This document shows, piece by piece, positions 13,001 through 15,248 of a DNA stretch of 64,000 nucleotides; within the stretch, counting starts at the first letter, position 1, and each line of letters begins with the position of its first letter. The stretch covers positions 462,659 through 526,658 of the forward strand of contig OY970186.1 of the NCBI GenBank assembly GCA_963708105.1, given 5' to 3'. Below the pieces are notes generated by a model, which saw only the letters and a program-made list of their open reading frames with translations, had not been told where the DNA came from and did no database searches. The DNA comes from an uncultured Actinomycetes bacterium (GTDB lineage Bacteria > Actinomycetota > Acidimicrobiia > IMCC26256 > PALSA-610). Position numbers and translations under genes: made by a program.

Positions 13001-13398
13001 TCGCCGTCGACCTCGGCCTCCGCGCGTTCGTATACGCCCCAGGTCACGTGGACGATCATTAGGTCGGTGTCGGCCGCGACGAGGAAGCTCAAGCCCATCG
13101 ATGAGGGGAAGTACGCCTTCTTCGCTGCGCGCCGGTCATCGTTCGATTCCTCCGCTAGCCCACCGGACGCGGGGACCTCGCCCTCCATGTCGTCATCGTC
13201 CGCGTCGTCGCCGCGCCGATCGGGAGCCGAGCCAGTCGGAATCAGAAATCCGGTCAAGTACCACACCGACGGGCGTATCCAACCAGGGAGCTGTTCGTCG
13301 GCGTAAGCGTGACTCGGCCACGGACCGACGAGGTCAAGGCGAAGGGCGTCAACTAATCGTTCGCGAACCTCGAAGGACGACAGCGTCGAAGCACTCAC
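10009..13398 (-). CDS. drmA: DISARM DrmA, a superfamily-2 DEAH-like helicase.
   Basis: '[20 protein letters not shown]' (motif I), '[15 protein letters not shown]' (motif II), 'ASTATVRRA' (motif III) and '[31 protein letters not shown]' (motifs V/VI). Intact 1129-aa ORF. GTGA overlap with the upstream gene. Confidence 0.85.
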   Translation of the reverse strand: [1129 protein letters not shown]

Positions 13399-15248
13399 GT
13401 CGCCGCCTCCGCGTCCAGACGCGCCGGGTTCCAGATTTCTTCGGCCAGACGCCGGTAGAGCTCCTGACGTTGGTCGAGATCTGCCTTGCGGAAATCAGCG
13501 TGGGCAGCGAAGGGCAGATCGTGATCAGCAATCAGCCTTCGAAAGCCGGGATTGCGTTCGTACGCCTGCTCGTGAAGGCTCTGCGCGAGCAGATTTTGTT
13601 CGAGGTAGTGCTTGCGCTTCTTGCCGTACTCGAGATCGCCATAGCTCGCGTTGAAGCTCTTCGGGAGCAGCAAGAGACCACCAATTCGGTTGCGGTACTC
13701 ACCGAATTCGCTCTGGTGCGCGAACTCGTCGGTGTGGCGCTCTGGGTGGTTGGCCCAGATGTGTTCAATCTCGTAGCCGATACGACCTCGCTTCGCGTAC
13801 TCGACGTACCGCGACGCCTGACCGGACTCCGTCTCGATGTAGTCCGTGATTCGGGCGAGCATGCGATGCACTTGACGGCCGTTTGCTCCGTGAAGTCGGA
13901 AGGCCTCGTTGGCTGAGAACGGAGTCTCCGTATCCGCTTCGAGTCGACCGCGCAACACTGCTACTACCTCGTCGACGGAGCGGGCACGTATGTCGCGAGT
14001 GACCAGGAACATCGCGTACTGCATCGTTGAGTAGTCGATCGCCCGGAAGTTCCAGATCCGGCGGTTGATCAGGATGTCGAGGTAGGCGGCGACAACCCGA
14101 AGCTTGCGTCGCGCCGTTTCCTCCGTGTCCGCGATGCTGAGCGGAGCCAAGAGCGCTGCGTATTGCAGTGTGAAGTTGTGTTGCGCGTTGAAATACACGC
14201 GCTCGAGACCCGGCTCAAGTGTGCCGGCCGCCTTGCGCAGCCGTTCATACCAGGTCGCATAGAACGCAAAATCTCGTTCGATGAAGCGGGCAAACTCTGT
14301 GCTTGATGTCAGACCGAGTCGGTCCTGATGATCACGCACCCAGCGGTGGAACTCAGTTCCGATGAGATCGAAGTCCTCCGGTACTGCACCGCGCCGACGC
14401 TCGCGAATGCTTTCGGCGTATTGACTCCGCAGCCACGACTTGATCGCGTCAGCGTCCTCGTCCTTGCCGACATTCATCAGTGCCTGGACTCGCTCGCGCC
14501 AGACCTGCCCCGAGCGGACTCGCTGCTCACCGTCGGAGATATTTGCGAGGAGGTAGCCCTTGAGCATGTCGGCCGGGGTGAGTGACAGCCCACGATCGTT
14601 CATCGTCTCGAAGATCGTGTAGGCGTCGCTGTCGGAGTACGCCGTGATCTCGACGAGGTGAACGTTCTCTACGAGCCAATCGACGAAGAAAGGAAGCGCT
14701 TCTGCCCGAAGCTCCTCTGGGAATAGCTCACGCAGGTCCCCGTATCGCTCGAGGATGTTCGCCACCGACTCCGACGGGTTGGGGTCGGCAAATTCCTCGC
14801 CGCGATACAGCGACTCCATGCAGTCGGTACGATCAGGGACATCAAGGTTGAACGATCGCTTGCCGTACCTCTGCGAGAAGACGAGGTCGCTGATCTGACC
14901 TCGCTGTTCTGAGTCGTCGAGAAGCTGGTGAACGAAAATAAGCAGCAAGGTCAGCGTGGTCAGCCGCTGTTGACCGTCGATGATGAACTTCTCGCCGTCC
15001 TTGTCGCTAACGATCACGGACCCGAGGAAGTAGTGCCCATACTCCGCGACATCGCTGCGATCGTTCCCTGCGTCATGACTTGCAAGGAACTTGTCCGCAA
15101 GATCATCGATTAGTTCGGCGACCTGCTTACGCTCCCACTTGTACTCGCGCTGGTAGTAGTCAATGGAGTACTTGCGGCCACCTAAGAGCTCACGAATGGT
15201 ACGGCCCTTGCCGTCAATCTCGCGCGAGGTTCGCGCCACATCGGCCAT
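13395..15248 (-). CDS. DUF262/DUF1524 protein, GmrSD/BrxU-like putative type IV (modification-dependent) restriction nuclease, embedded in the DISARM operon.
   Basis: N-terminal DUF262: 'YSIDYYQREYKWERKQVAELIDDL' and 'FIIDGQQRLTTLTLLL' (DGQQR motif). C-terminal DUF1524 His-Me finger: 'GYEIEHIWANHPERH...LLLLPKSFNASYG'. Intact 617-aa ORF. It overlaps both neighbours: TGATG at 15246-15250 and GTGA at 13395-13398. Confidence 0.85.
   Translation of the reverse strand: MADVARTSREIDGKGRTIRELLGGRKYSIDYYQREYKWERKQVAELIDDLADKFLASHDAGNDRSDVAEYGHYFLGSVIVSDKDGEKFIIDGQQRLTTLTLLLIFVHQLLDDSEQRGQISDLVFSQRYGKRSFNLDVPDRTDCMESLYRGEEFADPNPSESVANILERYGDLRELFPEELRAEALPFFVDWLVENVHLVEITAYSDSDAYTIFETMNDRGLSLTPADMLKGYLLANISDGEQRVRSGQVWRERVQALMNVGKDEDADAIKSWLRSQYAESIRERRRGAVPEDFDLIGTEFHRWVRDHQDRLGLTSSTEFARFIERDFAFYATWYERLRKAAGTLEPGLERVYFNAQHNFTLQYAALLAPLSIADTEETARRKLRVVAAYLDILINRRIWNFRAIDYSTMQYAMFLVTRDIRARSVDEVVAVLRGRLEADTETPFSANEAFRLHGANGRQVHRMLARITDYIETESGQASRYVEYAKRGRIGYEIEHIWANHPERHTDEFAHQSEFGEYRNRIGGLLLLPKSFNASYGDLEYGKKRKHYLEQNLLAQSLHEQAYERNPGFRRLIADHDLPFAAHADFRKADLDQRQELYRRLAEEIWNPARLDAEAAT

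Follow-up and report, generated by a model that had tools for sequence, protein, structure and literature searches.

A GmrSD-superfamily gene nested at the drmMI–drmA junction of a class 1 DISARM operon, and the cargo slot that it occupies

The nesting of one defence gene inside another defence system is an established principle. Genes that combine DUF262 and DUF1524 domains have long been known within type I restriction-modification (R-M) operons, as with RloF of Campylobacter jejuni (Machnicka 2015, PMC4619093), and such nesting is reported to have been demonstrated by experiment for TgvAB of Vibrio cholerae VPI-2 (PMC11411939; PMC11014532). In the BREX locus of pEFER the nested gene is brxU, whose product complements BREX (Picton et al. 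2021, PMC8565348), and in Hma systems it is HEC-05 or HEC-06; a survey by Payne and colleagues covered genes carried within BREX, DISARM, and type I R-M loci, and its authors put forward a complementary or co-regulated defence (Payne et al. 2024, bioRxiv 10.1101/2024.01.29.577857). According to Bell et al. 2024 (PMC11090510), one branch of McrBC is linked to a DISARM-like cassette. The subject here is a 617-amino-acid (aa) protein of the GmrSD superfamily whose gene, called gmr below, follows drmMI and precedes drmA in a class 1 DISARM operon. This operon is carried by a stretch of 64,000 nucleotides from an uncultured Actinomycetes bacterium (assembly GCA_963708105.1, contig OY970186.1, positions 462,659 to 526,658), referred to as the window. 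A first interpretation of this stretch, the sequence-only reading, took a DISARM and GmrSD hybrid as not known to have been described. No literature text naming a GmrSD-like gene inside DISARM was found, and the specific combination appears to be undescribed, but the nesting principle was already published and the novelty had been overstated.

The DISARM operon of the window is a complete class 1 system with an extra gene inside. It runs on the minus strand from position 22605 to 7443 in the order drmD, drmMI, gmr, drmA, drmB, drmC, with the five drm genes co-oriented in one cluster. All five DISARM proteins are identified by PADLOC with E-values of 1e-83 to 0, and DrmA, DrmB, DrmC, and DrmD exceed the curated NCBIfam equivalog or subfamily cut-offs (Table 1). 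Of the BREX gene models, only those of the PglX methylase are matched, and these weakly by DrmMI (PADLOC 5e-9; NCBIfam score well under the cut-off). The product of DrmMI-type enzymes is N6-methyladenine, or m6A (bioRxiv 10.1101/2021.12.28.474362). The G+C content of the DISARM island is 60–64%, against 68–72% in its flanks. As had been proposed from the letters, gmr is an intact open reading frame (ORF) that overlaps both neighbours. The drmMI stop codon and the ATG of gmr have one base in common (TGATG), with a GGAGG 10 nt upstream, and the gmr stop codon overlaps the first possible start of drmA (GTGA), a putative start taken as the first in-frame start codon. The same 4-nt overlaps are present in two other DISARM loci, L009 and L161. 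The embedded gene is probably expressed as part of the operon and translationally coupled with its neighbours.

Both domains named by the sequence-only reading were recovered by Pfam search above their gathering cut-offs. The N-terminal DUF262 domain, a ParB-like NTPase domain, scores 121.8 bits (cut-off 33.2, E 5.3e-35), and the C-terminal DUF1524 domain, a His-Me finger nuclease domain, scores 37.4 bits (cut-off 23, E 2.9e-9). The DGQQR motif is part of the string IIDGQQR (residues 89–95), while the nuclease motif, 'EIEHIW' from residue 493 followed by N533, aligns to the SspE-type 'IEHI...LLP..N'. Across an alignment of 60 homologues, in which mean column identity is 83%, residues D91, G92, Q93, Q94, R95, E495, H496, W498, H505, and N533 are invariant. 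With both domains, DGQQR, and the (D/E)H...N motif in place, the protein belongs firmly to the GmrSD superfamily. No NCBIfam model covers it.

The gene is neither a chance reading frame nor a decaying one. A search of 5.8 billion proteins gave at least 7,879 matches at E ≤ 1e-10, of which the best 120 are all full-length and 72–88% identical to the 617-aa protein. The closest DISARM counterpart is that of L161 (88% identity), and in this pair the ratio of nonsynonymous to synonymous divergence (dN/dS) of gmr is 0.05, with a synonymous divergence (dS) of 1.36. Homologues of up to 88% identity and this low ratio exclude a chance ORF. The corresponding dN/dS and dS values are 0.07 and 1.15 for drmA, 0.04 and 1.49 for drmB, and 0.09 and 1.14 for drmC. 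Because the dS of gmr matches that of the DISARM genes (1.1–1.5), the embedded gene has been co-inherited with DISARM in the lineage of the window and L161, and it is equally constrained. A pseudogene or a recent insertion is ruled out by the dN/dS of 0.05 and by a dS equal to that of the DISARM genes.

The favoured reading, to which we give a probability of about 0.6, is that gmr encodes an autonomous nuclease gated by nucleoside triphosphate (NTP), which most likely restricts foreign-modified DNA, tolerates m6A, and extends the coverage of DISARM. In this single polypeptide, the DUF262 domain would bind and hydrolyse NTP via DGQQR and thereby gate the C-terminal His-Me finger nuclease. The gene would travel as a one-gene cassette that settles within the operons of methylation-based defence systems; here it occupies the drmMI–drmA slot, and it would be expressed together with the operon. 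Its proposed task is type IV restriction, the cleavage of DNA that enters the cell with base modifications foreign to the host, with modified cytosines as the most plausible target, and it would thus protect against phages whose modified DNA DISARM deals with poorly. The m6A marks of the host DrmMI would have to be tolerated by the nuclease. The type IV identity is putative, drawn solely from membership in a superfamily in which GmrSD and BrxU cut modified-cytosine DNA (PMC10952713, PMC8565348). Along with it we infer nuclease and NTPase activity, co-transcription, modification dependence, and complementarity with DISARM; the two domains with their catalytic motifs, the embedding of the gene, its purifying selection, its promiscuous contexts, and its independence of any one partner are observed.

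Comparison with characterised proteins places the 617-aa protein in an uncharacterised subfamily. BrxU is alike in joining a DUF262 domain with DGQQR to a DUF1524 His-Me domain in one chain, in being a single gene nested in the same orientation within an m6A-methylation-based defence operon, and in its proposed complementary coverage of phages with modified DNA (PMC8565348). It differs in its host, BREX rather than DISARM, and in having no detectable sequence similarity to the 617-aa protein. BrxU also carries an RLFDS motif, and no such string occurs in the DUF262 region of the 617-aa protein, as read from the unaligned translation. At the level of sequence, then, the label 'BrxU-like' in the sequence-only reading fails. 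RloF and TgvAB are reported to share the embedding habit of gmr; their host is type I R-M instead of DISARM, type I R-M being the commonest context of the 617-aa protein's own subfamily.

PADLOC ranks HEC-06 first for the 617-aa protein (2.3e-41), followed by 'Orf5', SspE, and a generic type IV model, with the HEC-06 hidden Markov model (HMM) matching in three separate stretches. HEC-06 is likewise a single-gene DUF262 and DUF1524 defence found embedded in another system, and it defends alone, with its DGQQR and E-H residues required (bioRxiv 10.1101/2024.01.29.577857). It is shorter, however, at 560 aa, and in pairwise comparison its likeness is seen over the DUF262 domain only: BLASTP gives 25% identity over residues 4–242 only, and the 98.5% probability from hhalign is confined to the same domain. 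The HEC-06 sequence compared comes from an Escherichia coli gene (L163) that matches the published gene with 100% identity over the latter's first 399 nt. This copy, from E. coli S3, lies among prophage genes (recE, recT, racC, kilR, and sieB), outside any defence operon.

By sequence, the closest solved structures are those of an SspE-type protein (20YV), DndI (9JFL), and SspE (6JIV), with E-values of 7e-12 to 1e-6. They share DGQQR and the 'IEHI...LLP..N' nuclease motif with the 617-aa protein and differ from it in that the similarity is essentially limited to DUF262 and in that their mechanism relies on the host's own phosphorothioate (PT) marks. SspE is activated by such marks. DndI nicks DNA constitutively and is released from self DNA bearing PT marks (PMC11662687). 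That the 617-aa protein is itself a PT effector is unlikely, as no dnd or ssp genes lie within the 64-kb window; PADLOC models for Dnd or Ssp gave no match in the 46 other window ORFs scanned. The PADLOC defence-methylase models also gave no match in these 46 ORFs, cytosine methylases in general being outside PADLOC's models.

A similar logic could nevertheless operate with methylation. Host m6A, from DrmMI or HsdM, would serve as the self mark by which the nuclease is released or activated, and the protein would act as an additional restriction arm of the methylation system, not as a type IV enzyme. The kinship with SspE-type proteins and DndI, the latter restrained by host modification (PMC11662687), speaks for this, as does an invariant tyrosine, Y32, equivalent to the PT-sensing Y25 of DndI. 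The surrounding YQR(D/E)YxW, however, is common to the DUF262 proteins compared, and the aromatic residue in front of QR corresponds to F in HEC-06 and to I in the HEC-05/BrxU sequence. Embedded copies of the gene usually stand right after an N6-adenine methylase gene, with HsdM at gene positions −1/−2 in more than 20 loci and a DrmMI or MmeI-like enzyme in about 10. Against this, no methylase can be recognised within three genes of the nuclease gene at 19 of the fully flanked loci, and copies from type I R-M and DISARM contexts are 80–87% identical despite methylases of unrelated specificities. HEC-06, moreover, needs no partner methylase to be active in an E. coli strain free of R-M. A methylation-reading effector is rated as unlikely. 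Its broader form, a portable m6A-reading restriction effector that plugs into type I R-M, MmeI-like, or DISARM systems and uses each one's mark to tell self from non-self, is rated as quite improbable.

The reading of gmr as an autonomous cassette draws on the contexts of its relatives. A scan of one genome per species found 347 relatives of the nuclease, and contexts were studied in the best 80 of the 347 (57–77% identity) by mapping DISARM proteins on the loci, clustering the neighbouring ORFs, and searching them with Pfam and HMM models, which left 75 analysable loci. Frequencies from this and the other best-80 set below describe relatives of the present locus, not all DISARM systems. The best 80 span many phyla, among them Acidobacteriota, Gemmatimonadota, Actinomycetota, Cyanobacteriota, Chloroflexota, Planctomycetota, Proteobacteria, and Bacillota. 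Judged by these sequences, the subfamily is large and very conserved, at 57–88% identity across more than a dozen phyla.

The gene lies in or beside a type I R-M operon at 31 of the 75 loci, typically in the order hsdM-X-hsdS-(...)-hsdR and sometimes with AbiEi/AbiEii nested alongside, and beside an MmeI-like or DrmMI methylase at about 10. Another 19 loci have five genes on each side and no HsdM or MmeI-like partner, and methylase families are absent from the top Pfam families of the 97 neighbours in these partnerless loci; the remainder are too short to classify. Overlaps of 4 nt with the neighbours are common in every context, type I R-M included. The contexts are interleaved on a neighbour-joining tree of the protein, and DISARM copies are 80–87% identical to type I R-M copies. 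Since the contexts are varied and interleaved and some loci have no partner, the gene behaves as an autonomous, mobile, single-gene cassette, independent of any particular partner. The hybrid DISARM and GmrSD system implied by the sequence-only reading is not supported, because the cassette is promiscuous: the subfamily occurs chiefly in type I R-M operons, and in many cases no methylase is nearby.

Some of these loci have further features of their own. In L001, L003, L006, L007, and L008, an AbiEi/AbiEii pair and the GmrSD-like gene both lie between hsdM and hsdS (genes −1/−2), a two-cassette insertion. In two metagenome-assembled genomes (MAGs) of 'Candidatus Porisulfidus', tblastn matches to the nuclease exceed one gene length (L061:10001-14114 and L062:7674-14494), which suggests tandem or nearby paralogues; the opposite-strand neighbours there are repeated proteins rich in tetratricopeptide repeats. 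A plasmid collection held 66 records with relatives of the nuclease (≤52% identity) and 105 with DrmA, with no accession common to both among the matches listed.

The position of gmr within DISARM was surveyed in metagenomes with a DrmA alignment. The best 80 loci have a DrmA 37–77% identical to that of the window, and 45 of them hold both drmMI and drmA. In 17 of the 45, the gap between these two genes is at most 300 bp and drmA directly follows drmMI, which bears out the canonical order of class 1 DISARM without such a gene. Inserted genes of 0.9–8.5 kb occupy the junction in 27 loci, and the gene order differs in one. The present nuclease subfamily is in the slot of a single locus (L083), and the cargo is otherwise heterogeneous. 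Two slots hold other GmrSD-like lineages (L090, and L157, where the gene adjoins an SMC-like ATPase), and that of L130 holds a McrB-like AAA_5 gene with McrC, that is, McrBC. Five loci carry an HTH-Peptidase_M78 gene paired with a 171-aa gene. Further cargo includes RES/HEPN with an AAA_21 ATPase, a reverse transcriptase, a Macro domain protein, a UvrD helicase, a PD-(D/E)XK nuclease, and a large helicase, and several slot ORFs in the surveyed loci have no Pfam match. At the drmMI–drmA junction, class 1 DISARM has a hot spot for varied defence-like cargo, and the present nuclease gene is not a core or routine component of the system, one of the possibilities that the sequence-only reading had named as telling against it.

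The arrangement drmMI-gmr-drmA-drmB-drmC is found in seven loci, namely the window, L161, L162, L009, L020, L043, and L083, all within one DISARM subclade (DrmA ≥ 68%). Of the 12 loci in this subclade, 7 have the present nuclease in the slot, 3 have an empty slot, and 2 have other cargo. Because the gene occurs on both deep branches, it was probably present early in the subclade and later lost or replaced. Two Solirubrobacterales loci (L026 and L031) carry the nuclease gene just upstream of drmD of a distant DISARM. The copies in L020 and L083 are split by apparent frameshifts. In L020, two additional ORFs of 216 and 360 aa (L020:11958-13659) also fill about 2 kb between the GmrSD-like gene and drmA, and the slot can therefore hold more than one cassette. 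At L162 (3382-18987), drmD, drmMI, drmA, and drmB are fragmented, an rve-family insertion sequence lies inside the operon, and a tyrosine integrase lies upstream; a 998-aa ORF there fuses the drmMI target-recognition domain to the GmrSD-like protein. This locus appears to be degraded or badly assembled.

These distributions bear on whether the protein could be an integral subunit of a DISARM subtype. Such a subunit would join a complex with DrmAB or DrmMI and contribute the nuclease activity apparently missing from DISARM, DrmC being dispensable in tested systems, as in the class 1 DISARM of Serratia (bioRxiv 10.1101/2021.12.28.474362). Overlap with both neighbours suggests translational coupling, and the gene's place in 7 of 12 subclade loci, on both deep branches and with a divergence matching that of the DISARM genes, would fit. 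The same subclade, however, has the empty and otherwise filled slots, none of the 33 more distant DISARM loci with a readable slot carries the nuclease subfamily, the majority of family members are found outside DISARM, and the same 4-nt overlaps recur in type I R-M contexts. An integral role is considered very improbable.

The other contents of the slot bear on what triggers the nuclease. An autonomous enzyme might respond not to base modification but to a phage anti-restriction protein that disables DISARM, as a 'guard', or to DNA structure or nucleotide depletion, possibly with abortive infection as the outcome. Payne and colleagues suggest that phage inhibition of the host system may set off an embedded one (bioRxiv 10.1101/2024.01.29.577857), and abortive-type cargo, the RES/HEPN, AAA_21 ATPase, reverse transcriptase, and Macro domain genes, occupies the same slot elsewhere. 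The subfamily is also far from proven type IV enzymes, with BrxU undetected and HEC-06 at 25% identity. On the other side, all characterised full-length DUF262 and DUF1524 proteins (GmrSD, BrxU, SspE, and DndI) read DNA modification (PMC10952713, PMC11662687), and other type IV systems, both GmrSD-like genes and McrBC, recur in the slot. A trigger other than modification is held to be unlikely. McrBC near DISARM-like cassettes (Bell et al. 2024, PMC11090510; YprA preprint 10.1101/2025.09.15.676423) is a comparable link of a type IV system to DISARM-type genes, although the families are unrelated (a GTPase plus a PD-(D/E)XK nuclease) and the published link is to a DISARM-like cassette, not an insertion into canonical class 1 DISARM. 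The earlier suggestion of a modification-dependent nuclease that backs up a methylation system is plausible, and the pattern recurs with the other GmrSD-like genes and McrBC in the slot; its extension to a hybrid system is unsupported.

Several points weigh against an autonomous type IV nuclease as the reading of gmr. Its nearest solved relatives, SspE and DndI, are not classical type IV enzymes and sense the host's own PT marks. BrxU (PDB 7P9K) was undetected among the PDB matches, both with the single sequence at E ≤ 1 and with a family profile at E ≤ 10; this comparison covered solved structures, and E. coli GmrSD is not among them. At about half of the loci an N6-adenine methylase gene immediately precedes the gene, a possible sign of functional coupling. 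An AlphaFold2 model from the 60-sequence alignment was too poor to be used (mean predicted local distance difference test score 57, predicted template modelling score 0.35) because the alignment is too shallow, with an effective number of sequences (Neff) of about 1.5. The ORFs of the surveyed loci are heuristic, taken as the longest ORF from the first start codon, and many come from MAG or metagenome contigs in which assembly frameshifts are possible. The trees are neighbour-joining, built from query-anchored alignments with no bootstrap, and dS values above 1 are near saturation.

If the autonomous, modification-directed reading is true, DISARM joins BREX, type I R-M, and Hma as a methylation-based host of a nested GmrSD-type nuclease, and the rule that systems attacking unmodified DNA tend to pair with one attacking modified DNA becomes firmer. 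The slot and the subfamily may be more useful than the single locus, and current understanding is not overturned. With about 60% of the surveyed loci carrying varied defence-like cargo, the drmMI–drmA junction is a place to look for new defence genes. The very large and strongly conserved GmrSD subfamily makes its substrate specificity worth determining.

Table 1. Features of the DISARM operon and of the embedded gene, in window coordinates.
Feature	Position	Strand	Details
gmr, embedded GmrSD-superfamily gene: DUF262 NTPase domain, helical linker, DUF1524 His-Me nuclease domain	13395-15248	-	617 aa, ATG start; Pfam; PADLOC
GmrSD_N/DUF262 (ParB-like NTPase) domain	14550-15194	-	residues 19-233; Pfam PF03235
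DGQQR motif	14964-14978	-	residues 91-95
GmrSD_C/DUF1524 His-Me finger nuclease domain	13455-13874	-	residues 459-598; Pfam PF07510
E495-H496	13761-13766	-	within 'EIEHIW'
N533	13650-13652	-	
drmMI/gmr junction	15246-15263	-	GGAGG 15259-15263, 10 nt, ATG 15246-15248; drmMI TGA 15248-15250; read from sequence
gmr/drmA junction	13395-13398	-	GTGA; gmr stop overlaps first possible drmA start; read from sequence
drmD, SNF2-like helicase, first gene of the operon	19480-22605	-	1041 aa; PADLOC DrmD 1e-284; NCBIfam DISARM_DrmD 952 bits (cut-off 610)
drmMI, N6-adenine methyltransferase, MmeI/Eco57I-like	15248-19387	-	1379 aa; PADLOC DrmMI E=0, 1269 bits; Pfam Eco57I, MmeI_Mtase, MmeI_TRD, N6_Mtase
drmA, YprA-like helicase	10009-13398	-	1129 aa (putative start); NCBIfam DISARM_DrmAS 1138 bits (cut-off 950); PADLOC 8e-274
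drmB, DUF1998/MZB	8222-10012	-	596 aa; NCBIfam DrmB_fam 547 bits (cut-off 240); Pfam MZB
drmC, PLD-like nuclease	7443-8225	-	260 aa; NCBIfam DISARM_DrmC_I 169 bits (cut-off 133); PADLOC 1e-83

No tRNA genes were found in the window. A PsyrTA-like module adjoins DISARM on the plus strand (4021-6070) and consists of a RecQ-like helicase and an ORF with a phosphoribosyltransferase domain (5468-6070). The helicase matches PADLOC PsyrT at 2.9e-108, a match limited to profile positions 5-243 of 689, and its C-terminal motifs run on in other frames (ORFs 4850-5386 and 5034-5534), pointing to a gene that is frameshifted or a pseudogene. Between this module and drmC lies an ORF with a PIN domain, VapC-like (6204-6770, plus strand), followed by a small ORF (6742-7113); this region is probably a toxin-antitoxin element at the island border.

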